Shown here piece by piece: positions 8,949 to 55,358 of a stretch of DNA of 64,000 nt. The translations under genes and the position numbers were made by a program. This DNA comes from a virus. A model generated the notes under the pieces. The model saw only the letters and a program-made list of their open reading frames with translations, ran no database searches and was not told the origin of the DNA. Each line of letters opens with the position of its first letter. Position 1 is the first letter of the stretch. Where the stretch lies: positions 11,469 to 75,468 of the IMG/VR virus record IMGVR_UViG_3300027762_000294; one strand, written 5' to 3'.

Positions 8949-11900
8949 ATGAACTTTGAGATTAAAGTAAAAGGGGTGGGATCAAAGATAATCATTGATT
9001 CTACCAACCCAAAATGGAACCTCCTTAGTAGTCCCAAGTATACCCACCCAGCATACACATATAGACTTTTTAAGGCAAACGGGGAAAGCACATGCGATTT
9101 GTCGGTATTATTAACCTCTAATGACAAACTCTTGTTATACCGTTATTCTAAAGGCTTTGAAAGCAGTGTGTATGAAGGTGTTCATCCGGGTTTATATGCC
9201 GAGGTAGAAGCCAGAGTAGGATCTGTGCCCACTATTAAGGTTGGGGAAACAATTTCAAAACCCGTAGGGGAGCCCTCCCATAACCATCAACTATTACATT
9301 GCCCAAACTCGATCCCTGAATCGGTGGTAGCGGATTTTAAGAAAAGAGGGGTTCCCTTAAGGTTGTTGGTTGAACTAGGGTATTATCTGATTGAGAAACG
9401 GCTTTATACACCTGCCTATATTATCGAAACGGGGGAGCTTTGTCCTTTTGTTTGTAGAGATCCTGGAAACGATAAACATCACAAACGTACTTTAAAAGGG
9501 AGTAAATTTGCGTCCTTTGCCTGGATAAAGTCTTCTGTTGAGGAGTGCGAAACCTTAATCGTTTGTGAGGGAATAATGACGGCTCTAGCAATTGCTAATT
9601 ATTTTCCCAACCAACATGTAGTTTCAGTAGGAGCCCATAACAATTACCCTAACCTTATTAACGATACCGCTTTAAGTAGATATTTTCCTGAGGTAACCAC
9701 GGTAGTCATAGTTCCCGATGTGGATTCTAATCATCATTCAACGGATAGTATTTCTAAACTCACTATAAATTCAGAAAAAGTGAGACTGGCTATTTTTCCT
9801 ATGAACCCGTCGACTTTGAAAGGGGATTTTGGTGATTTGAAAAGTAAGACTGCCCAGAGGGTTGCAGCTGCCTTGTTTGAGTTTATTGCCTTTGCATCAG
9901 GGAAAACTTTAGCAAACCGTCTTTACTATGAACGTAAAGTCACACCTTGCACTTTGAATAACAACCCCGGGGATTTACCCATGATTCAAGGGAGCAAAAC
10001 CACTTCGTTTTTAGAGCCCATGGGGTTTTTAAATAATTTTTTAAGGTTAGGTCCCAAGTCATTCTATTGCGTTCCTCATCAATTAGTAGTGAGCTTAGAG
10101 CAACTAACTTCTTTAATTGAATCACCAGCAACAATGATTCCTTATACCAGTGCATTAACCGATCTTATGGGAAACGAGCCTAAGGGTAGTGCCGTGTATA
10201 AAGAAGCACAAGCAGTTCTAGATAAAATCAAAAGATGGTCTACTGACACACTAATAAGTAACATACCTAATCATCCATTGCTTAGACTGGATATGTACGG
10301 TTTTGCATTTAAGAATGGGTACTTTATGCATGATGGTAGCAATCATTGGTTTGTTACAGATAACAAAACACGTCCAGCTGCCGTGAATTTACGATACCCA
10401 CCCATTCACTTAGAGTACGTTCCTGAAGCTATCGACGACATAGCTAAACAAGAAGTTGAGTTTGTTTTGGGTCACTGTATGTGTGGAGGGAGTCGTAAGT
10501 CAAAAGAATCTGTGGCGCGTATGTTGAGGTCATTGTTTTTTGGCAATGAAGACCATATAGCAACCCATGCAAGATCTATATATGTTGTTGAAGGCACGGG
10601 CGGGATTGGTAAATCGCAGCTAGGGTTATTAATAAAATCAATGGACCCTTATGCGGGTGACATTAACCCCATGAGTGTGGCTTCTAAAAACAAGTCTCAA
10701 TTTCATTTCACACATGAGGATGCGTTAAAATCAATAAAGATTTTAGATGATGCACCTCCTATATTTGGGGATGTTAGCTTTCTCAAAACCAGTGCTACCG
10801 GTGGTGAAATGCGAACAGAAGGCAAATTCCAGAATCCGGTATATGTAGAAACATGTGCCTCAATGGTATTTGTTTATAATGAAACTCCTAAATTTGACAA
10901 TGACACTGGATTAGAGCGTCGGTTGAGATATGTAACATTAGAGGGAAAACGTAACAATTCGATTAAAGTAGATACTTTGGGAACGCTGTCTAAACACTTA
11001 CCAGCCGTTTTCAACTGGATTTGCGAAAACATCAACACCGTGGTGTCTGATGAGGATTTTTATCGCAGCACCAAAACAGAAGTTCCCGCTGATGTTATGG
11101 CGTTTGCAGAAGCCGTATTTACACCGTCATTTAATTCCAATCCGGCACTATCAACTTCTGAACTCATGTTTTTCAAACGAGTTTTCATTCAGGACGAGAA
11201 CGAATGTAAAAAATTAAAGCCTAAGGAAAGGACAACACTTTGGCAAAATACCAATCGCAAACAAGAACCTCAATATTCTCTATTCGACGGCTATAAGCGA
11301 ACCTTAGGGTTGAAGAATAATATATCGCACAGTCAATTTGAAGATAAATTACGAATTGCTCTGTCGTATAGACAAGTACAACAACAGTTTTTGGGAGTTG
11401 AACCCACGCAGTCCCTGTATAATTACAGGGAATTGTTTTTCACTGTAAACTCCAAAACTCAATATGTGCGAATGAGATTAGAGCAAATTCATGAAAACCC
11501 AGATGACCAGGATCCTGTAACACCACCTCCTGAAAAACAGAATAAGGATATCGTTCCTATAAATCAAGTGAGTCCCGTCCCACAAAAACCTGTTATTGAT
11601 GGGTATTTCCAGGGAGAGGACAGTTTCTTAGATATAGTTTGGCACCTTCAGAATTTTAAAGAGTGGGAGAGATCTGAAGATTTACTTTGGATTGTGTATA
11701 ATCCAAACAAGGACAAAGAATTTGAAGGATTTTTAAAGACTAACTATCACGGGGATGAATTAACCAACTTACTTCGGTTGTTGAGAATGTATAGAGAGCC
11801 TCTTGTTGCTGTAAAATCAAACAACTTCCTCTCACCTGAATTACATACTGCTGTGTTGGATGACTTTGAATTCGCAACCCTCACGGATATGTTTCCTGAA

Positions 11901-44725: not shown

Positions 44726-44967
44726 GGTTTTGCAATCTCCCCTATGACAGATTCCGGATGAAGTTTATCCACTAAAATATTCCCCCCTTTATCTCCTAAC
44801 AAAAAAACAACAACTAATACTAAACCATACCTTTTGAATGTAGTTAACTCCTCTTTTAAACTCCTGATTTCATAAGTCATTCCCTCGAGTTTACTTCTAA
44901 TGTCCCTATGATCCTGAAGAAGACTATCCACTGTATCTGACAATTCTTTAACTGTTAAGTTTCCCAT
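44722..44967 (-). CDS. Holin-like protein (coiled coil plus one TM)
   Basis: Directly follows the endolysin; heptad region then YGLVLVVVFLLG. Confidence 0.55.
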   Translation of the reverse strand: MGNLTVKELSDTVDSLLQDHRDIRSKLEGMTYEIRSLKEELTTFKRYGLVLVVVFLLGDKGGNILVDKLHPESVIGEIAKP

Positions 44968-45545
44968 GGCACTTCCTTAGTTATATAATAACGTGGTTGT
45001 AGATATTGGGCGTCATATTCTCTCACGTCTAAATGGACCCAAGTCGGGGATAACTCTCTAGGCTCTACAGATTTCATATTGCGCTTTCCCCACCCTATTT
45101 GACAATTACACTTAGAAATAATAGTCTCCCTATTTTTAGCGACAAAATCAACAGCGTTACCCATATGATTTGTTGTGCGACGTCCGTGTTTTTTGTTGTT
45201 TAATTTACATCTATAACCCGACGTGATTATAACATCCCCCACATAAAACTGAATTGCTTTTAAAGTGTAAATCAAAACCTCGTGAATACCCTTACCATCA
45301 AACCCTCCACACGAACAGTTAGGGCATTTTAACTTCTCAAAATCAACGGGATATTTTGTTATGAACTCACACATCGCGGCTTTAGTCTTAGGTCCCGCAA
45401 CACCATCAGGATGTTCATCTCCCATGTAATCATGTTGAAACTGTTTGATTTGTTTTATTGTTTTCGGTCCCATAACACCATCCCAGGTTGTCCCGCCAAA
45501 CCCTGCTAAAATTATTTGTATTCTTTCCACATTCATGAATTCCAC
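44955..45545 (-). CDS. Endolysin: peptidoglycan-binding domain plus M15 Zn peptidase
   Basis: DGVMGPKT...DGVAGPKT; ITSGYRC, HMGNAVDF, WVHLDVR. Confidence 0.9.
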   Translation of the reverse strand: MEFMNVERIQIILAGFGGTTWDGVMGPKTIKQIKQFQHDYMGDEHPDGVAGPKTKAAMCEFITKYPVDFEKLKCPNCSCGGFDGKGIHEVLIYTLKAIQFYVGDVIITSGYRCKLNNKKHGRRTTNHMGNAVDFVAKNRETIISKCNCQIGWGKRNMKSVEPRELSPTWVHLDVREYDAQYLQPRYYITKEVPWET

Positions 45546-45606: not shown

Positions 45607-46805
45607 TTACTTATTCTTGTCCATACTTCTCTTAATCTCCTTAGAGATCGGTTGATCTAGTTGGCGATCTAAGTTAAACAAAACCTCAACAACACTCAAT
45701 TTGTTAAAGTAACTTGCCCATGGGGCAATGTCAACCAAGCGGATGAAAGCGTCGATAGGAACCGGGTTGAAATGGGCACCCCATTCACCTAAAATAATTG
45801 GATATGAGGATCGTGCCATTGAATATAAATTCAAAACCAAGACGTCAAAAAAAGCCAAGTCATGAGTTTTGGACTCAAGAGCTTGGCTTTGGGTTTTCAA
45901 TTCAGGTGGTAGCTCTAGTCCGCTTTCTGTATAGAAATTTATAGCGTCTTGAATAAGGCTTAAATCTGAACCGCCTCCTGTATATGTTTTAACAACCTGT
46001 TCATTCACAGCCTCGATATTGAGATAGTCTCGAATATTGAGCTTTGTGTTTTCACTTCCTAAAGTTGACACTCGGTCTCTAAACACGTCGTCATCCTTTA
46101 AAAATGGAATTAGCTCCTCGGGGGCTGTGAATTCTCCGCCTTCAATTCTAATGAGCAAACTCAAGGCTTCTTCATACGAAACCCCTTCCTGCAATGCTTC
46201 CTGGAAAAAGGGGTTATCAAAAGAGGATACCGAAAAACGAATTAATCCAGTTTTTTTTGGGCTAAATAGTAACGATCCGTTGAACTAAATGACGAGATTA
46301 AGGGGTATAGGTTATCGTGCTGACTTAGAGCCAACTTTAGACCTGGTTTGTCTTTGATCGTCAATTCTTGACCTTGATAATGAATGCCGGATGACATGTC
46401 AACAATCAGATGGTCTACCATCATGTCAATTTGATGGCTGCGGGATTCTTCTGCACTTGGGAGTTTCACTCCCGCATTGGTTGACGATCCTGATAAACCT
46501 CGTTTCTTTGAACCTTTGTCATCATTGATAATTCGCTGCGTGTAAAAATTTTGAATCCCATCTCGATATGGTTGATAACTAACATGACGCAGAATAAACC
46601 AAGGTAACTCGGAAGCTAACTGATTAGCCTCTTCAGAAGATCCCATTGATTTGACTAAGTCCTCATATGAACAAAGATCAAGATCGCGTTCTGCTTGACC
46701 ATCATATTCGACAGCCACGAGATATCCCTTTACTCCCTCAACTAATAGTTGTTTGGAGATATACATCGTTTCCACATCTTTGTTGGGTTTTCCATATTTA
46801 GCCAT
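45607..46805 (-). CDS. Tail assembly chaperone, long (GT-like) form made by -1 frameshift at 46251-46258
   Basis: CAA AAA AAA CTG at the end of 46242..46805; -1 frame reads KTGLIRFSVSSFDNPFFQEALQEG directly into ORF 45607..46194. Confidence 0.75.
46242..46805 (-). CDS. Tail assembly chaperone, short (G-like) form
   Basis: Downstream of tail tube genes and ends in a slippery A8 run. Confidence 0.7.
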   Translation of the reverse strand: MAKYGKPNKDVETMYISKQLLVEGVKGYLVAVEYDGQAERDLDLCSYEDLVKSMGSSEEANQLASELPWFILRHVSYQPYRDGIQNFYTQRIINDDKGSKKRGLSGSSTNAGVKLPSAEESRSHQIDMMVDHLIVDMSSGIHYQGQELTIKDKPGLKLALSQHDNLYPLISSFSSTDRYYLAQKKLD

Positions 46806-47391
46806 TGCGTTTTCCTCTTTTAGTGGTAGTTGAGACCTTAGTCTCTGTTGGTTGAACAGGTGGGGTAATGAGCTCTAATGCTGCCTTCTGAAAATCTCGA
46901 TAAAACATTCTACTGAACGTTTCATTATCAGATACAACATACTCTCGTTTAACCGCACGGGCGGACGGTGTGTTGGTTTCATTGGGCTTAACCAAATCCC
47001 AAGAAATGGGTTTGGCATAATAAACGACTAATGGGTCTACAATTTCAGTAATGGCAACCAGCACATTGTGTTTCATAGCTGAATATAAACGATGATGCCC
47101 ATCGGCAACATACAAATCACCATTTGAATTACGTTCGCAAACAACGGGAATTCTAACAACCCCGTTTATAATTTCAATTCGATTCGACATTAACTCCAAA
47201 GGACTGTTAACACAAATATTGTCCCAAAATTCCAGTTTTCGATTATCTAAATAGAACTGGGTCGGTCTTACGTTCTCTTTTATTTCACGGGAATTGTAAA
47301 GAGATGTTGTTATGCGCCGTCCTTTGTAGGGTTTGATATCCGGATAATCTTTTAACCCCACATTTTGTAAAAAGGCAATTAAAGAAGTCAC
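46798..47391 (-). CDS. ParB/Srx-like domain protein
   Basis: IPVVCE...LYVADGHHRLYSA signature. Confidence 0.65.
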   Translation of the reverse strand: MTSLIAFLQNVGLKDYPDIKPYKGRRITTSLYNSREIKENVRPTQFYLDNRKLEFWDNICVNSPLELMSNRIEIINGVVRIPVVCERNSNGDLYVADGHHRLYSAMKHNVLVAITEIVDPLVVYYAKPISWDLVKPNETNTPSARAVKREYVVSDNETFSRMFYRDFQKAALELITPPVQPTETKVSTTTKRGKRNG

Positions 47392-47392
47392 T

Positions 47393-48986
47393 TCAGTTTA
47401 TTCTCCATGTTGAATTTGAATTGAGGGTAAATATAGAGGTGGACAGGTCTATTGAAAACTCTCCAAACCCATCCACAACATCGGTACACGCATATTTAAT
47501 GCCTAGCTGGACATTGAACAGCCCTGTTGAGGGGGGCACAGGTCCTATGCCGCTAATTGAATATTCGTAAGTTTCAACTCCTTTCACAATAGAAGTTGTC
47601 GAGTCGAAATTTGTAACCTGTGAATATATGTTTTTTTTAACAAACGAAAATTCAGTAACAAAATAATTTTTTGGGAATGTCAGCTTATAAAAGCCATCCT
47701 CAAGTTGAATATATCCATTTCTAACAACGCCACTACGATCAATTATCTCTCTAGTGGAATTGTTTGAAATATACTTTATTCTTTCCAGGACGCGGTTTGA
47801 GCTTTGATCCCAAGAATACCCAATCTCATTTATGTGGGCATCTTCAAATGTATATTTGACAATAGATCGGGATACTCCTGGAATAACATGCTCGTTTAAT
47901 GTGTAAAGACTTAAGGTCAGTCCGCTATTAAAAAATACATCGGGGTTAAAATGGATATTTTCTACAGTTAAAGCATACCTTGGGAACTGCCTAACAACTC
48001 TATCAGTTTTCCCTAATGTAACATCAATATAACCTTCATTTGCAAGACCTGTTAAATCGTGAACCTCAGTCCTTATTGGACACCATACTGAACTATTACT
48101 CTGTAATGGTGATAGAAATACGGATCTTCGTGAGATTAGCCGCACCCCCCACCCCAAACCGTGCGGGACACTTTCGCGTCACACGGCTTTCAAAGTCTTA
48201 TGGCTAGGTTCTGTGACCTATGCCAACATTCAGTTCTATTTGGAAGTCAAGAAGTGTCATTTTGTCCATAGGCACCTCCTTTATTAAGTTAAGTTTTACA
48301 TCTGAATTGATCTTAACTTCCAATTTTCCCTAAATGCTCTAAATAAAGTTGTTTGCAAATACTCAACATGTTTTCGAGCCTTTTTAATTAAGCCCGGTGT
48401 AAATTGCCATTTCTTACGAGGATCGTAAGCTCTGACGGCTTTTTTACTCACCTTGGTATCCAAAGTTTATTCTTTATCTAGATAGACTCCTAGCGTACTT
48501 CTGCCCCTAACTCCCTTGGGTCGTTGCGTTTCTGTCTGCCAACGTATTGTTCGTCGTCCCTTACTCGCATATTATTACGCCTCTGTGAGATTAAGGTTAA
48601 CTCTCTATAAAGTTGATCTACCTTGACCTAATCTTAACCTCATCCCTAATTTTGATTAATCCGAATATATTAACTGATTTAGACTGAGACTTTACCCCTT
48701 ACACTTTTAGATGATTATGCAGTTGTATGCACTGTTGCATATAAGTGTCTTAACTCTGTTGGGATTTAGAGGCTTCAATCGTCTCTTCGCATATTGCTAG
48801 TCATGTCAGTTTCTGCTCAGGCTAAGGTTTTAAACAGAGTTTCCTAATTCCTTAAATACGCCCTTTTGTCCCTTCGCTATACACCCTGATCCTGTTATAG
48901 CAAGTCAGAGGTCTGAAGGTAAGCACACCACGTCTCATCAGTGGCGAGGGAATTGCACCCCATTTCAGATTATCTTTCGTAACCAT
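47393..48986 (-). CDS. Intron-split tail-region protein (exon 1 48959-48986, exon 2 47393-48105; 246 aa spliced)
   Basis: Removing 48106-48958 gives the in-frame MVTKDNLKWVQSNSSVWCPIRTE...; the ATG lies 17 nt after the tail tube stop. Confidence 0.7.
48106..48958 (-). mobile_element. ORF-less group II intron (IIB-like), 853 nt
   Basis: Domain V AGCCGTGTGACGCGAAAGTGTCCCGCACGGTTT (about 48156-48189); D6 with bulged A 8 nt before the AT 3' end; 5' GTGCA; TCCCT/AGGGA D1 stem; 10-bp D2 stem; AGA J2/3. Confidence 0.88.
48296..48451 (-). pseudogene. Remnant N-terminus of the intron-encoded reverse transcriptase (51 aa)
   Basis: KWQFTPGLIKKARKHVEYLQTTLFRAFRENWKLRSIQ resembles the RT N-terminal W..K....V..LQ..I..A pattern; lies in domain IV. 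Confidence 0.6.
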
Positions 48987-49003
48987 TTGAGTTGGCTACT
49001 TAT

Positions 49004-50512
49004 TTAGGCACACGCATACATCCCAAACATAACAGTATAACCCATATTAGATTTACCGGCTGAGAACTCAACATTAACAGCTGTTGGGGTATTAAGAGCG
49101 GGGTTATCATCGTTTGCAATCAATGTTACAGAGGGCAAATGAATAGTCAAATATTGAGTTTTCCCGTTTGAACCTTCGCAACCCTTAACACTTTGCAAAA
49201 CCACAAATAGATTTGCCACACAAGAATTAGCCGACGCCATAATCAATCTTAAAGTTTTGTCATCTAAAAAGCTCTTAAAAGTCCCACCGATTTGTGATAA
49301 GTTGTTCACGCTTATTTTGTTAGGATATAGAGCGTCATTGTGTTCTTCAGAAGTTCTCCCTGATTTTTCAACCATATATGTTTCCCCTGTCTTCAATGTA
49401 AACTCAGACACGGGGTACACCTTCCCATTGAGATAGAGAAAAGACTTAGACCCAATGAACGGCAATCCGATACTGTTATCTTTAACCAGCTTTGAATAGG
49501 GGGGCGTTCCTATCTCGGTAGGATCCGTTGTGGTTGGGCTGATATAAAAGTCGCCTCCACATAACGCGCCAAAATTCATAGTGACTAATTCATTGGATGG
49601 GGATGATAAATCAAGCGAGTGAATTACAGCCCCTCGTAAACCTTTGTAATATTTCAATGCCTCGTTTGCAACAACCAAGTTAAATGAGCTGACTTTTGTA
49701 CCATTCTTAACAGTGTCAAACATATCAAGTGACCAAGAAGACAGGTCTGTCACTTCAAAATTTCGAGTTGTTTTGAAAGTAAAATTATTGACTCCCACGG
49801 AATCAACATAAAAGATTCCGCTAGTTGCAAGTTTTTGAGAAGTTCCTTTGATGATAAATGGCTGCCCTACTTCCATAGACGAGCCACCTGTAAAAGTGTA
49901 AGTGTATAGGTTAGTTAGAGGATCAAACAATTTAGACCCTGTAAACCCAGTTACATTTAGAGTTGACCCATATTTAACTTCCCCGTGTAATACAGAAGCT
50001 ATAGCATTCTTTGCAAAATCAGTCCCTGTGTAATTTGTTTCTAGAGTAGTGGTTACAGTGAACCCTGTGATTTGCTTATTAGCTACCTGCCCATCATCAC
50101 TTAAACAAACAGCTTCCGCCGATTCGGCAGCCCGTTGAATTCCTCCTGCCTTGAAGCAAATTTGTGTAAATTCAGGGAGAATGTACCACTCAGAATAGTT
50201 ACCTGCTAAAGCCGCAACTAAATCAATGTTAGTAGACGGTGTCAATAATGCACTAAAGCTCCCATTCGTCTCGGTAATAATAGAATCAAAACCGAATTCA
50301 TAATCCACACCATTTACTTTAACCCACACAGGTTGCCCAACAGAATATGTTGAAAAAATTTCTTTGTCAGTTATCCGTTTTAGCTTGACTTTATCAGCTG
50401 ACATTTCTAAGGTATTAACTGGAGTGACTCGATATCGTTCATAAGGCGGCTCCCCAAAAATTTCTTCAGATGCATACCCCATACTTACGTTACTATTTAC
50501 TAATGTTGGCAT
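49004..50512 (-). CDS. Tail tube (major tail) protein, 502 aa
   Basis: N-terminal SNVSMGYASEEIFGEPP typical of tube proteins; upstream of chaperones; paralog of 50608..53103. Confidence 0.7.
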   Translation of the reverse strand: MPTLVNSNVSMGYASEEIFGEPPYERYRVTPVNTLEMSADKVKLKRITDKEIFSTYSVGQPVWVKVNGVDYEFGFDSIITETNGSFSALLTPSTNIDLVAALAGNYSEWYILPEFTQICFKAGGIQRAAESAEAVCLSDDGQVANKQITGFTVTTTLETNYTGTDFAKNAIASVLHGEVKYGSTLNVTGFTGSKLFDPLTNLYTYTFTGGSSMEVGQPFIIKGTSQKLATSGIFYVDSVGVNNFTFKTTRNFEVTDLSSWSLDMFDTVKNGTKVSSFNLVVANEALKYYKGLRGAVIHSLDLSSPSNELVTMNFGALCGGDFYISPTTTDPTEIGTPPYSKLVKDNSIGLPFIGSKSFLYLNGKVYPVSEFTLKTGETYMVEKSGRTSEEHNDALYPNKISVNNLSQIGGTFKSFLDDKTLRLIMASANSCVANLFVVLQSVKGCEGSNGKTQYLTIHLPSVTLIANDDNPALNTPTAVNVEFSAGKSNMGYTVMFGMYACA

Positions 50513-50607: not shown

Positions 50608-53103
50608 TTATCCTTTCCAGTAATTTAAACTATATGTGTAATCGTATAATGGGGAATAAGCGGCACTATATTCCATTGTGACAGCCGTTGGGGTGTTTGA
50701 TGCCGGGTTATCAACTGTAGCTACAACCGTTACATTGGGAATATGAATCAAGAATTCATCACGGATATTTGAACCATCGTTTAAGCATGTAGCTGCACTA
50801 GACCCCCTTAAAATCAAACTGCCGGTGCAATTATTGTTAAACTTTTCAATTTGTTGAATCATCGATTGAGACAAGAATCCCTTAGTACTCCCACTGACTC
50901 CACTAAAAGAATTCAAGTTGACAATCCCCGGGTATTCTCCGCTGGTATCTGTTAAATCGTCTGAACCTGCATTTACGTAATCGGTAGCAACTAAATCGCC
51001 CGTTCTGAAACTGAATTCGCTAACTGGGAATACCTTGCCATTCAAATAAATGATGGAATTAGACCCCGTAAAGGAATGATTAAACCCTGAATCAATTAAG
51101 GTTGAATGATAGGGGTGTGGGGTGGGGTCTGTTAAACTTGGATTAGACTCATAACCCCCAACACCATCTACAGTCGTGTTGAGACTCATCATTTCGGTGA
51201 GGTTTGATGTAATTTCAAACGACTTGGTTAAGCAGCCGGGCAATCGAATGTAATAACCAATTCCTGTATTTACTTGGGTTAGTGTATAAGGAATAACATC
51301 CTTTCCATTATGTACGTGCGCCATCACTTTAATATTCATTAAAACTGTTATTGTTGAAGACGGCACACTAGCAAGGTGGGAAAAACGGATGCCCCCACTC
51401 GTCCCGGTACATAAAAGAGGTTTATTTGCGATTTTGGTATTAGGATAATCGCTAATCATAAAAAACACGCCCTTCGTAACCCCTGGAATCGGATATGGAA
51501 TTAAATAATCAAATAACCCTGTGGTAGAATTTTGACCTAAATTAGTCAATTGAGCAGTTATAGCCACTGACGATTGGGAACTCCAAGTCGACCTACTCGC
51601 ACTGGACAACATTAATAATGCAGGGTCGGATAAAGATAGAAACATATTTACTGTCGTGGCTAAACTATACCGAGTTCTGATCTTGGGACCGACCTGTCCC
51701 TCAATAGTCATACAAGGCTGTTCTACCGCTTCAGGCGTTCTTTGAATACCGCCATCTTTATAACAAATCTTAGTAAATGAGGGATAAACTTTTAACTCAC
51801 CTGCTAAAACAGTCACGGGCTCTGTAGACCCATCCGACCGAACGTATTGATCATCTCCAACTTTAATAAACTCAATTCCCGCGGCGTCTAAAGATGAGCC
51901 CACGGGCAAATTCTTGAGTAACTCTAAGTCTGGCTCCCCAAAGCTAAATAAGCCTTGCGGTGGGGTTACAGTTTCAAATGTCACATTTACTTTCTGAATA
52001 GGGCTTGGGATGAAAACCCCTTGGGTAATATCTTCAAGTGCACTCACTGTGAAGGTCAGTGGGTTTACAACTGTAACGGCAAAACCAGATTCCTCAAGTT
52101 TAGACTTAACTTTATCTTTAAAATTAGTATACGTATTCCCTTGAGTTAAATACACATAACGAGTCAAACCGTCTTTTGAATCGTCTTGATATGTGGATGT
52201 GACAATAAAGTCATAACCAACACCCCCTCTCACAAAACGCAATCGATCTCCGTCTGAAATATTAATATTCTCTAGGATATCTTGATTCTCAAAGCTTAAA
52301 GTGCGACGGCGGCTTACAGGTAACGCCCCTTCAATTATAACAGCATTCTCACTTAAAAGCTCTAACCGAGTTGGGTTGTAAGCTTTGGCTGTGATTACAA
52401 ATTTACTATTGGGAGTATCGATTGTAGTCGTGTAATCAGTCAATATTAAATTCATTTTAGCCACAAGATTAGGTTTGTAATCCACTCCATCATCATAAGA
52501 GTAATACACCCGTGTTAATGGGTTGTCGGGCGGAGGTGGTAACGTGGTGCTTGTGTTGAATTGGTAGGTATTACCGTCTAAAGCAATGTCAATAGGATTA
52601 TGCCAATCAAAGGTCTGTTGTTCATATACCCCGGGCACTGCCGGGACGTCAATAATGTCTGCCCACCAACTACTACTTTGAAACAGAGTACCCGATCCTG
52701 GCACAAAATCGTAAAGTTTGAGTTCAATGGTGTTGTCGTCTGTATAGGTGTAAGGTCCGGAAGTAATCTCAACATTATCAACTAAATCTTTGAGTGTCCA
52801 AATGCCGGATGTGTTATTATGAGGTCCCATCCCTGAAATAGACCCCACATAAAGCTCATCAACATCCGCCCACTCACTTCTGAAAATTTTACCTACAACT
52901 GCAATTCCATTTAAAAGTCCAGGTGTGATGTTAATTGTCGCCTTCGTATATTCCAATTCATTTGCCGCAGTGTAAGTGAACTGGTTAGATGCCCCTGTAA
53001 TAATCACGGGGATTGTGTTGGGTGTGCCAAACAAAGTTTCAGGTCCGTTGATAGCTAAACTTACATTTGAACTTAATCCCGTAAAATTATAATTATCTGC
53101 CAT
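50608..53103 (-). CDS. Second, larger tail-tube-like paralog, 831 aa
   Basis: Shares FTxICxKxGGIQR, YLNGKVxPVSEF and DNPAxNTPTAV blocks with the 502-aa protein. Confidence 0.7.
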   Translation of the reverse strand: MADNYNFTGLSSNVSLAINGPETLFGTPNTIPVIITGASNQFTYTAANELEYTKATINITPGLLNGIAVVGKIFRSEWADVDELYVGSISGMGPHNNTSGIWTLKDLVDNVEITSGPYTYTDDNTIELKLYDFVPGSGTLFQSSSWWADIIDVPAVPGVYEQQTFDWHNPIDIALDGNTYQFNTSTTLPPPPDNPLTRVYYSYDDGVDYKPNLVAKMNLILTDYTTTIDTPNSKFVITAKAYNPTRLELLSENAVIIEGALPVSRRRTLSFENQDILENINISDGDRLRFVRGGVGYDFIVTSTYQDDSKDGLTRYVYLTQGNTYTNFKDKVKSKLEESGFAVTVVNPLTFTVSALEDITQGVFIPSPIQKVNVTFETVTPPQGLFSFGEPDLELLKNLPVGSSLDAAGIEFIKVGDDQYVRSDGSTEPVTVLAGELKVYPSFTKICYKDGGIQRTPEAVEQPCMTIEGQVGPKIRTRYSLATTVNMFLSLSDPALLMLSSASRSTWSSQSSVAITAQLTNLGQNSTTGLFDYLIPYPIPGVTKGVFFMISDYPNTKIANKPLLCTGTSGGIRFSHLASVPSSTITVLMNIKVMAHVHNGKDVIPYTLTQVNTGIGYYIRLPGCLTKSFEITSNLTEMMSLNTTVDGVGGYESNPSLTDPTPHPYHSTLIDSGFNHSFTGSNSIIYLNGKVFPVSEFSFRTGDLVATDYVNAGSDDLTDTSGEYPGIVNLNSFSGVSGSTKGFLSQSMIQQIEKFNNNCTGSLILRGSSAATCLNDGSNIRDEFLIHIPNVTVVATVDNPASNTPTAVTMEYSAAYSPLYDYTYSLNYWKG

Positions 53104-54197: not shown

Positions 54198-55358
54198 TTA
54201 TCCACCGATGATTTGGATAGCAGGTTGAACTGCCACAATACCATAAAAAACATCTAAGGCTAATATCTTCTTAGCTGAATCAGGATCCATATATTCACGC
54301 AATCGCAAACTTAATCCTGTCTTAGGATCGCTGACTGTGCTCATAATGCCACCGCCATAACCTTGATCTACAACTGGCGGGACCATAGTGGCATAAACCA
54401 AGGACGTTTTGGAATAAAACAGGCTGCGGTTGCCGCCATAATCTTGTACCATAACCACATCATTTAACACTAGATCATCTTGTAAAGGAGGATTAATAGT
54501 TAAGCCTCGATACCCGGTAGTTGGTGATGTTACATTTGTAATGGTGTGCCAACTATCTGATTTAGGAACGTAAATAGAATCTCCATTTACCAATGTGGTG
54601 TTGTTGGCATTATAAATGACAAGAAAAGTAGAACCCTTAGTTAAAATACTCCCGTATAGGTTAGAAGCTGTCCACGTTGGGATAACAGTAGTTCCTTTCG
54701 TTTTAACAGGAATATTGTGAGACCGCGTAACCTCAAATCCCAAAGTTTGTCCAATTGAACCGGTGCGCAATGCTTCTTGAGTTTGTGCATTAGCAAATCC
54801 TAAAATATTAGCCGAATTCATTAAGCTCATATGCGCTGTAGATAATGTGCAATACATAGGATGAGCTTCTTGACTATAGCCCATCTTTTCCATAGCATTC
54901 ATTCCTGTAATCATATCTTGAAAACTGAATTCAGTAGAAACTTTAGTTGCATATTGAATTGGAGTTTGACACATAACAGCCACGGCATCATCTTCAATTT
55001 TTGAAGCAATTGCGGAAACCGCAGGCTTTAAATGTGAGTCTAAAAGTTCTGCCATTGAATAATCAGTTGCTAAACTAGACGCTCCGATTCTCACAGAAGC
55101 ATATTTGTTTATTTGACCCTCAACAGCATTAGGTTGTAGATCCTGAACCGTCGGGGCATTAATATCATATACAATAATGTTGTTAGGAATTGGAATTGGA
55201 AAACGATTAGTTCCTTGTGGAAACACCCCTGCTGTGGTTGATCTTTGTAAGATAGGAGTTCTGGTCTCGAGCTCGAGAAGCAAATTCCACATTATAACTT
55301 TTAAGGCTAGTGGTTGACTACCTGAATTGAAATAATTAACTTGTTTGATAGCTGGCAT
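54198..55358 (-). CDS. Major capsid protein, P22 coat (gene 5)-like
   Basis: LKPAVSAIASKIEDD, ALRTGSIGQTLGFEVTRSHNIP, GLSLRLRE...ALDVFYG. Confidence 0.85.
   Translation of the reverse strand: MPAIKQVNYFNSGSQPLALKVIMWNLLLELETRTPILQRSTTAGVFPQGTNRFPIPIPNNIIVYDINAPTVQDLQPNAVEGQINKYASVRIGASSLATDYSMAELLDSHLKPAVSAIASKIEDDAVAVMCQTPIQYATKVSTEFSFQDMITGMNAMEKMGYSQEAHPMYCTLSTAHMSLMNSANILGFANAQTQEALRTGSIGQTLGFEVTRSHNIPVKTKGTTVIPTWTASNLYGSILTKGSTFLVIYNANNTTLVNGDSIYVPKSDSWHTITNVTSPTTGYRGLTINPPLQDDLVLNDVVMVQDYGGNRSLFYSKTSLVYATMVPPVVDQGYGGGIMSTVSDPKTGLSLRLREYMDPDSAKKILALDVFYGIVAVQPAIQIIGG

Follow-up and report, generated by a model that had tools for sequence, protein, structure and literature searches.

Background

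Group II introns that lack an open reading frame (ORF) are already known in phages. In their 2025 survey, Merk, Jones and Eddy curated 20 phage group II introns, of which six lack an ORF, and reported hits in about 9,229 IMG/VR genomes, with 6,703 hits to domains 5 and 6 (D5/D6) (PMC12350094). In Thermosynechococcus elongatus, the ORF-less TeI3 introns depend for splicing and mobility on a full-length relative in the same cell, which supplies its intron-encoded protein (IEP) (Mohr, Ghanem & Lambowitz 2010, PMC2882425). Here we describe an intron of this kind in the IMG/VR virus record IMGVR_UViG_3300027762_000294, a 75,468-bp genome with inverted terminal repeats. The window that we analysed is the 64,000-nucleotide (nt) stretch from position 11,469 to position 75,468 of that record, and coordinates are those of the window. 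We estimate at roughly 80 % the probability that the element is a 908-nt group II intron, with its reverse transcriptase (RT)/maturase deleted, which lies in the late operon of a tailed phage within the overlap of two genes and is spliced most likely with a maturase acting in trans.

An earlier note on this DNA, made from the letters of the sequence, had proposed an RT-less intron in a late gene whose expression should depend on splicing. That core stands, for a phage that encodes no RT, while the 5' splice site moves from 48959/48958 to 49014/49013 and the length from 853 to 908 nt. The remark that group II introns are uncommon in phage structural genes now carries less weight, given the number of IMG/VR genomes with hits in the survey, and the record studied here may itself already be in the survey's table.

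Results and discussion

Intron-less alleles define the borders of the intron

The window, and likewise the whole 75,468-bp genome, holds a single Rfam match. It is to RF00029 (Intron_gpII, D5/D6) at 48191..48106 on the minus strand, with a score of 56.8 bits for a gathering score of 40 (E 1.7e-08, full model 1-77), in agreement with the D5/D6 described earlier. We aligned contigs of public runs onto 46800-50500. Contigs of three DNA metagenomes from three different studies join 48105 directly to 49014 and skip 908 nt; at this joint there is no positional ambiguity ('both' = 0) and no letter is inserted between the two sides. The intron therefore runs from 49013 to 48106 on the minus strand. 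These borders were set independently of any consensus, and the ends that they define are a 5' GUGUG, which fits the canonical GUGYG, and a 3' ...CACCAU whose terminal AU fits AY.

A full-length relative was found through RT proteins related to the RT remnant inside the phage intron. The alignment of this 2,530-nt metagenome contig, L005, begins precisely at 49013 and shows 78 % identity over intron positions 1-703 and 85 % over positions 720-882. The terminal CUAUCACCAU is common to both, and the exons flanking the L005 intron are unrelated to those of the phage. Intron-less alleles, homology to L005 and the exon-binding sites described below thus concur on the borders, and a real group II intron is present at this locus.

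Exon-binding sites match the phage exon at 13 of 13 positions

The two exon-binding sites (EBS2 and EBS1) pair with the intron-binding sites (IBS2 and IBS1) that form the final 13 nt of exon 1 (Table 1). Pairing is complete (13/13), the order is correct and the two sites lie 35 nt apart. When candidate 5' sites from 49080 to 48931 were considered, both complements occurred in order only at 49014 and in the adjacent register 49015, and of these two it is 49014 alone that precedes a GUGUG and agrees with the intron-less joint. Both EBS motifs in order were obtained in 90 of 200000 shuffles. The loop CCCAAC, formerly taken for an EBS1 with 4 of 6 matching bases, in fact belongs to EBS2, which matches the true IBS2 at 7/7 positions; the true EBS1 is GCAUAC, with 6/6. 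For comparison, the homologous EBS2 loop in L005 is UUCAU, which matches AUGAA of L005's own unrelated 5' exon.

The intron interrupts two overlapping genes

The intron sits inside a 14-nt overlap, AUGC/UACAGAGUAA (the slash marks the insertion point), of an upstream 502-amino-acid (aa) gene and a downstream 238-aa gene; that two overlapping genes are cut had been overlooked in the earlier note. The intron-less allele reads ...GGG AUG UAU GC/U ACA GAG UAA..., and the downstream AUG lies 4 bases before the insertion point, where AUG C/UA CAG AGU encodes MLQS. Splicing the window in silico yields 502 aa ending in ...MYATE* and 238 aa beginning MLQSNSS..., as in intron-less relatives. Five database relatives of the upstream protein end in ...MYATE, whereas the window's own unspliced call ends in ...MYACA. 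Exon 2 translates into 236 aa, and the close relatives of this product (94-95 % identity, six proteins) are 237 aa long and all begin MLQSNSS; a homologue of 32 % identity begins MLYS at the same position. Intron-less homologues, named earlier as a check, were thus found both as DNA alleles and as proteins of relatives. Only ATGC, the start codon plus one base, of the downstream protein lies in exon 1, which comes close to the start within exon 2 that had been named as speaking against the earlier model.

The window's downstream protein counts 238 aa against 237 in relatives because of a net difference of one codon at 47935-47939, where three single bases are absent in relatives, in a small stretch that varies between the proteins (HFNPDVFFN versus HYNQEI-FD).

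Without splicing, the upstream frame enters the intron for 9 nt and stops at TAA 49006-49004 (intron positions 8-10), so the product still has 502 aa with ACA instead of ATE, and the downstream AUG yields only the five codons of MRVPK*. As judged from these frames, only the downstream gene should need splicing, the alternative being an in-frame GTG or TTG start in D6 or D5. Automatic calls have indeed placed the downstream start there. One uses TTG 48157 in the 3' strand of D5 (ORF 47393..48157, correctly described before as starting inside D5/D6) and the database call uses GTG 48145 in D6. The annotation of two late genes is corrected in consequence: the database downstream call starts in D6, and the last two residues of the upstream call are intron read-through.

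For the 238-aa protein, neither Pfam nor PHROGs yielded a family, and a sequence search of the PDB gave nothing significant. The ESM Atlas returned weak leads only (0.81; viral proteins, one tail-tube family). AlphaFold models of the 236-aa exon-2 protein and of the 502-aa protein reached a predicted local distance difference test (pLDDT) score of 34 and 42 respectively, too poor for fold searches.

Table 1 Coordinates of the intron, its domains, its exon-recognition elements and the flanking exons in the window
Feature	Position	Strand	Basis or remark
Whole ORF-less group II intron	48106..49013	-	Intron-less joints and L005 homology
Exon 1, 502-aa tail-like gene without the final 2 1/3 codons and the stop	49014..50512	-	Weak phrog_290 match
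Exon 2, final 10 nt of the upstream gene (..T ACA GAG TAA, stop 48098-48096) and body of the 238-aa gene	47393..48105	-	Joints, relatives
IBS2 UUGGGAU (49026-49020) and IBS1 GUAUGC (49019-49014)	49014..49026	-	Last 13 nt of exon 1
EBS2 AUCCCAA, D1d loop	48759..48765	-	7/7 Watson-Crick with IBS2
EBS1 GCAUAC, terminal loop of hairpin 48741-48716	48725..48730	-	6/6 Watson-Crick with IBS1
Domain 1, basal stem CCUAA/UUAGG, branches a-d	48645..49008	-	RNAalifold consensus with L005, compensatory pairs
Domain 2	48587..48641	-	5 compensatory pairs in helix
J2/3, ACAGA	48586-48582	-	Consensus fold
Domain 3	48492..48581	-	Consensus fold with L005
DIVa-like hairpin upstream of the RT remnant, retained	48483-48458	-	Fold
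RT remnant in domain 4, GTG 48451, 51 codons, TAA 48298-48296	48296..48451	-	RT N-terminus similarity
Conserved 3' part of domain 4, AAGGAGG and 21-codon ORF	48204..48269	-	Also downstream of the RT stop in L005
Domain 5, 34 nt, AGC triad, internal bulge, GAAA loop	48156..48189	-	Rfam alignment
Domain 6, bulged branch-point A at 48113	48109..48152	-	Rfam alignment

A complete ribozyme of a divergent lineage

We generated a consensus fold of the phage intron and L005 with RNAalifold, covering domains 1 to 3 (D1-D3) and the first hairpin of domain 4 (D4). It contains 140 consensus pairs, of which 22 are compensatory and none is broken. Sliding the pairing partners by 1-3 columns leaves 0-1 compensatory pairs, and the observed values were attained in 0 of 500 shuffles; the fold is derived from the same two sequences that it scores and is in that sense supportive, not definitive. 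The D2 and D3 stems reported earlier are present and covary with L005. The junction between them (J2/3), for which AGA had been given, reads ACAGA and offers an A for the terminal U of the intron. A48113, formerly named as the branch point, is indeed bulged: it is unpaired in the Rfam alignment and lies 7 nt from the 3' end. D5 is nearly identical in L005, with both differences preserving pairing, and a possible alpha-alpha' pairing (UGAGAC/GUCUCA) was seen.

The Rfam models of D1-D4 gave no match even at E <= 1, and the 5' part of the ribozyme therefore belongs to a lineage that is not represented in Rfam. The lambda-epsilon' motif used for class assignment (IIA/IIB) was not recognised in the intron. 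Subclass IIC appears unlikely because an EBS2 is present, D5 measures 34 nt and the RTs of the relatives carry an HNH domain.

Two further observations concern the 3' half of the element. The conserved 3' part of D4 carries a strong AAGGAGG followed by a 21-codon ORF, MDKMTLLDFQIELNVGIGHRT, with a counterpart at L005:2309-2400. Both synonymous and non-synonymous differences separate the two versions, and the segment may be a mini-ORF or D4 stem sequence. D6 of L005 is about 35-45 nt longer than that of the phage intron owing to an extended hairpin (L005:2455-2500); conservation between the two covers the base of D6, the branch region and the 3' end.

The reverse transcriptase has been lost by deletion

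What is left of the RT amounts to exactly the 51 codons counted before. The remnant is 74-84 % identical to residues 1 to ~50 of five group II RTs (P0012-P0016) of 523-542 aa, which carry the domains RVT_N, RVT_1, GIIM and HNH; one of them comes from Thiotrichaceae bacterium IS1, a metagenome-assembled genome (MAG), and the closest RTs as a group come from sediment metagenomes and this Thiotrichaceae MAG. The best NCBIfam model for the RTs of the relatives is TIGR04416 (group II RT/maturase), at 241 bits, below its cut-off of 300 bits. In a tblastn search of plasmids with P0012, annotated group II RTs reached at best ~31-33 % identity, and no class is assignable. Genome contigs scanned with P0014 gave only distant (28-42 %) cyanobacterial RTs and no close host copy.

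Relative to L005, about 1.5 kb (positions of about 809-2308) is absent from the phage intron, with homology found again in the 3' part of D4. No RVT_1 domain was found in the whole 75,468-bp genome, and P0012 residues 2-54 are the only part of that protein with any match in the phage, which encodes no RT. With 51 codons left and no RT elsewhere in the phage, the element is, as read from its sequence, not an autonomous mobile intron but an ORF-less derivative of a lineage that bears an RT. The RT remnant together with the full-length relative L005 indicates that the ORF-less state arose by deletion.

Intron-less alleles are common and intron RNA is abundant

Intron-less alleles were present in 3/3 of the other DNA runs examined, on at least five contigs. 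Two of these runs (X2 and X4), in which the phage alleles are intron-less, also hold separate contigs that are 90-98 % identical to pieces of the intron. None of these contigs spans the junction that the deletion left at 48284-48307, which is what one would expect if the same communities harbour full-length relatives. A second contig, of 37,867 nt, encodes a protein (P0010) with the same D6-derived N-terminus. A blastn search of GenBank phages with 47393-49300 gave no match, exact and near-exact scans of viral contigs for D5 and for the conserved D1 block gave 0 matches, and no locus encoding a 237-aa relative was found in viral or metagenome contig collections, which may lack near relatives.

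At the RNA level, a 42-Mb SOLiD sediment metatranscriptome contains a 687-nt contig identical to intron positions 11-697 (48317..49003) at a word depth of 16.5, part of which is also held by a second run of the same study. The flanking phage exons are without cover in the RNA runs, which we take as evidence neither way. RNA of the phage intron, or of an identical copy elsewhere, is abundant; splicing is not thereby demonstrated. The ends of the RNA contig (48317 and 49003) were considered as a sign of a lariat or of a full-length variant, a use that we dropped because contigs cannot decide it.

How the intron may be spliced

We propose that the intron entered the phage by retrohoming or retrotransposition from a host-resident intron family. 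Splicing would take place during infection, and the maturase would most likely come in trans from a full-length relative resident in the host, as for TeI3. The region of D4 around the RT start, DIVa, is the usual primary binding site of the maturase, and the retention of a DIVa-like region fits splicing in trans. The IBS1/IBS2 segment also holds the ATG of the downstream gene (49017-49015) and a weak GGGA Shine-Dalgarno-like motif. With both inside the IBS, EBS pairing should hide them in the precursor: EBS1 and EBS2 bound to IBS1 and IBS2 would sequester the downstream AUG and the Shine-Dalgarno-like motif, and exon ligation would release both.

Several observations weigh against this reading. 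Ligated-exon RNA (...GGGAUGUAUGC/UACAGAGUAAUAG...) or a lariat junction (G49013-A48113) occurred in none of the contigs examined (Logan contigs only). The RNA contig is wholly internal to the intron and may derive from an identical copy elsewhere, for example in the host. The searches yielded no source of a maturase, and the nearest full-length relative available shares only 78 % identity and differs in its EBS sequences. Perhaps only one sample shows the allele that carries the intron, with run X1 as its possible source. No Rfam model of D1-D4 matches, and the 5' part of the ribozyme is judged from a two-sequence comparison only. Finally, GTG 48145 or TTG 48157 could in principle start a 250- or 254-aa version of the downstream protein without splicing.

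Of the other explanations, autonomous self-splicing in vivo, with no protein helper and no dependence on a host maturase, survives best. In its favour are a complete, compact ribozyme, searches that gave no source of a maturase and the self-splicing of some group II introns in vitro. Without the IEP, however, bacterial group II introns generally do not splice efficiently at physiological Mg2+. The DIVa-like region is kept as expected if a protein still binds there, and close relatives of the intron that appear to be full-length are present in the same habitats. On balance we regard splicing without any helper as improbable.

Alternatively, the intron could be a relic that no longer splices, leaving the downstream gene either silenced or translated from the GTG or TTG in D6 or D5 as a protein of 250 or 254 aa that carries junk residues at its N-terminus. 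Such a relic would account for the deleted maturase gene in a phage without an RT, for the gene callers' choice of GTG 48145, which has a G-rich run before it, and for the lack of spliced RNA among the contigs examined. Against it, the elements for catalysis and exon recognition all appear intact, with EBS/IBS pairing at 13/13 and a D5 nearly identical to that of the full-length relative, and D1-D3 retains 140/140 consensus pairs. The candidate GTG and TTG starts are buried in stable D5/D6 helices. Furthermore, the interrupted protein is conserved (relatives of 94-95 % identity and a distant homologue of 32 %), and a knock-out allele would be unexpected as the assembled majority form of a complete 75-kb genome. 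A dead relic is accordingly quite improbable.

The original 853-nt model, with an intron at 48958..48106 that starts with GUGCA and a 28-nt exon 1 read from an ATG at 48986, is hardly credible any longer. Its frame arithmetic works, since an ATG is present at 48986 and exons of 28 and 713 nt do sum to 246 aa. Its first exon (48986..48959), its junction AAATGGG/TACAGAGT and its 246-aa product nevertheless give way to the 238-aa protein, given that relatives start MLQSNSS and have no MVTKDNLKW extension. The intron-less DNA alleles lack 48106..49013 and not 48106..48958; the stretch 49013-48959 is homologous to the first 55 nt of the L005 intron; and no EBS1 complement exists for the 48959/48958 site. 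The true 5' end thus lies 55 nt upstream of the GUGCA, which is inside a conserved D1 hairpin (48961-48947, GGGG-UGCAAUU-CCCU). An assembly artefact, with a bacterial intron joined to phage sequence by mistake, might be suspected in a record assembled from a metagenome, where intron-less alleles prevail in other samples, but it is extremely improbable given an insertion exact to the base at GUGUG...AU, EBS1 and EBS2 of the intron that match the phage exon at 13/13 and a second contig with the D6-derived N-terminus.

Splicing of the ORF-less intron with a trans-acting maturase therefore remains our preferred reading. The further idea, put forward earlier, that splicing gates virion assembly finds no support: a sporadic selfish insertion fits better than an evolved regulator because intron-less alleles are common in nature.

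We also tentatively consider a stronger version, in which production of the 238-aa late protein depends on the maturase of a cognate intron in the host chromosome. The ORF-less intron would then be a hidden host-range determinant, a single splicing event would unmask the start codon and Shine-Dalgarno-like motif of the translationally coupled downstream gene, and the phage would ferry the intron between hosts. We hold this to be possible and, on present evidence, rather unlikely. If it were true, productive infection would occur only in cells carrying the driver intron. Where a host maturase is needed, phage late-gene expression would be tied to the mobile-element content of the host, in an experimentally tractable way; otherwise the locus adds one more case to the phage group II introns of the 2025 survey. 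In either case it offers a natural test case, with intron-plus and intron-minus alleles, EBS tuned to the phage target, a full-length relative with its RT and intron RNA in a metatranscriptome.

Genomic context of the intron

The gene for the major head protein lies at 54198-55358 (phrog_283, E 1e-34). Downstream of it follow genes for an 831-aa (50608-53103, minus strand) and a 502-aa protein (49004-50512, minus strand), the intron with the 238-aa gene, a ParB-nuclease-like gene, a PG_binding/M15 gene and an ORF of 7,744 aa. The 831- and 502-aa proteins are paralogous (31 % identity over 412 aa, E 1e-46), the longer one having about 330 extra N-terminal residues, and both weakly match phrog_290, a minor tail protein. 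On this gene content, late structural/tail operon seems a reasonable label for the locus. A scan for promoters and terminators around the intron gave no more sites than chance, and no tRNAs were found in the phage.

Three of the neighbours merit mention in their own right. Directly after the interrupted gene, 46798-47391 (minus strand) gives sub-threshold matches to ParB-like nucleases (PF24392, PF08857; phrog_1033), unexpected in a structural operon. The gene at 44955-45545 (minus strand) encodes PG_binding_1 and Peptidase_M15_3 domains and is endolysin-like (phrog_894, E 7e-12); it stands amid tail-region genes, upstream of the giant ORF. The latter, at 18442-41676 (minus strand), is a single uninterrupted frame of 7,744 aa downstream of the tail-like genes and takes up about 31 % of the 75.5-kb genome.

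Comparison with known systems

Group I introns of T-even and other phages, such as those in td and nrdB, resemble the present intron in several respects: they are of a self-splicing type, interrupt an expressed gene, are sporadic among close relatives and bring an in-frame stop soon after the 5' splice site. They differ in ribozyme class and chemistry, and their mobility is DNA-based, through homing endonucleases and not an RT. The group II intron in groEL of Azotobacter vinelandii is placed at the stop codon, so that splicing alters the terminus only, as it does for the upstream gene here. Unlike the phage intron, it carries its own ORF and does not also part a downstream gene from its start codon.

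Closer parallels are the phage introns described in 2025 (PMC12350094). Like the intron studied here, they lie in a conserved phage coding region, have intron-less homologues, are recognised by the Rfam D5/D6 model and contain no intron ORF, with an RT presumed to act in trans. Here, by contrast, Rfam matches for D1-D4 are lacking, the insertion is in a two-gene overlap rather than in one ORF, and an ORF remnant together with a full-length relative shows the deletion origin. LPJP1 has an RT-bearing intron of its own, whereas the phage studied here has none.

The TeI3 introns share with the phage intron a deletion of about 1.5 kb in domain IV (DIVb), ORF remnants and good EBS/IBS pairing with the flanks, which points to retrohoming (PMC2882425). 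They are chromosomal, multi-copy and mostly outside genes, whereas the phage intron is a single copy in coding sequence and its driver IEP is presumed to reside in the host genome. The RT lineage differs as well, with about 31-33 % identity to annotated cyanobacterial RTs.

Within its own lineage, the phage intron shares both its 5' and its 3' end with L005, at 78-85 % nucleotide identity across D1-D4a and D4-D5, and its RT remnant is 60-84 % identical to the RT N-termini of L005 and P0012-P0016. L005 differs in having an RT of the 542-aa class with RVT_N, RVT_1, GIIM and HNH, a longer D6, a different EBS1 and EBS2 and a different target site. What is particular to the phage intron is the combination of a two-gene-overlap site, a demonstrable deletion origin, a perfect EBS match, the lack of a phage RT, an intron-plus/minus polymorphism and a divergent ribozyme and RT lineage.

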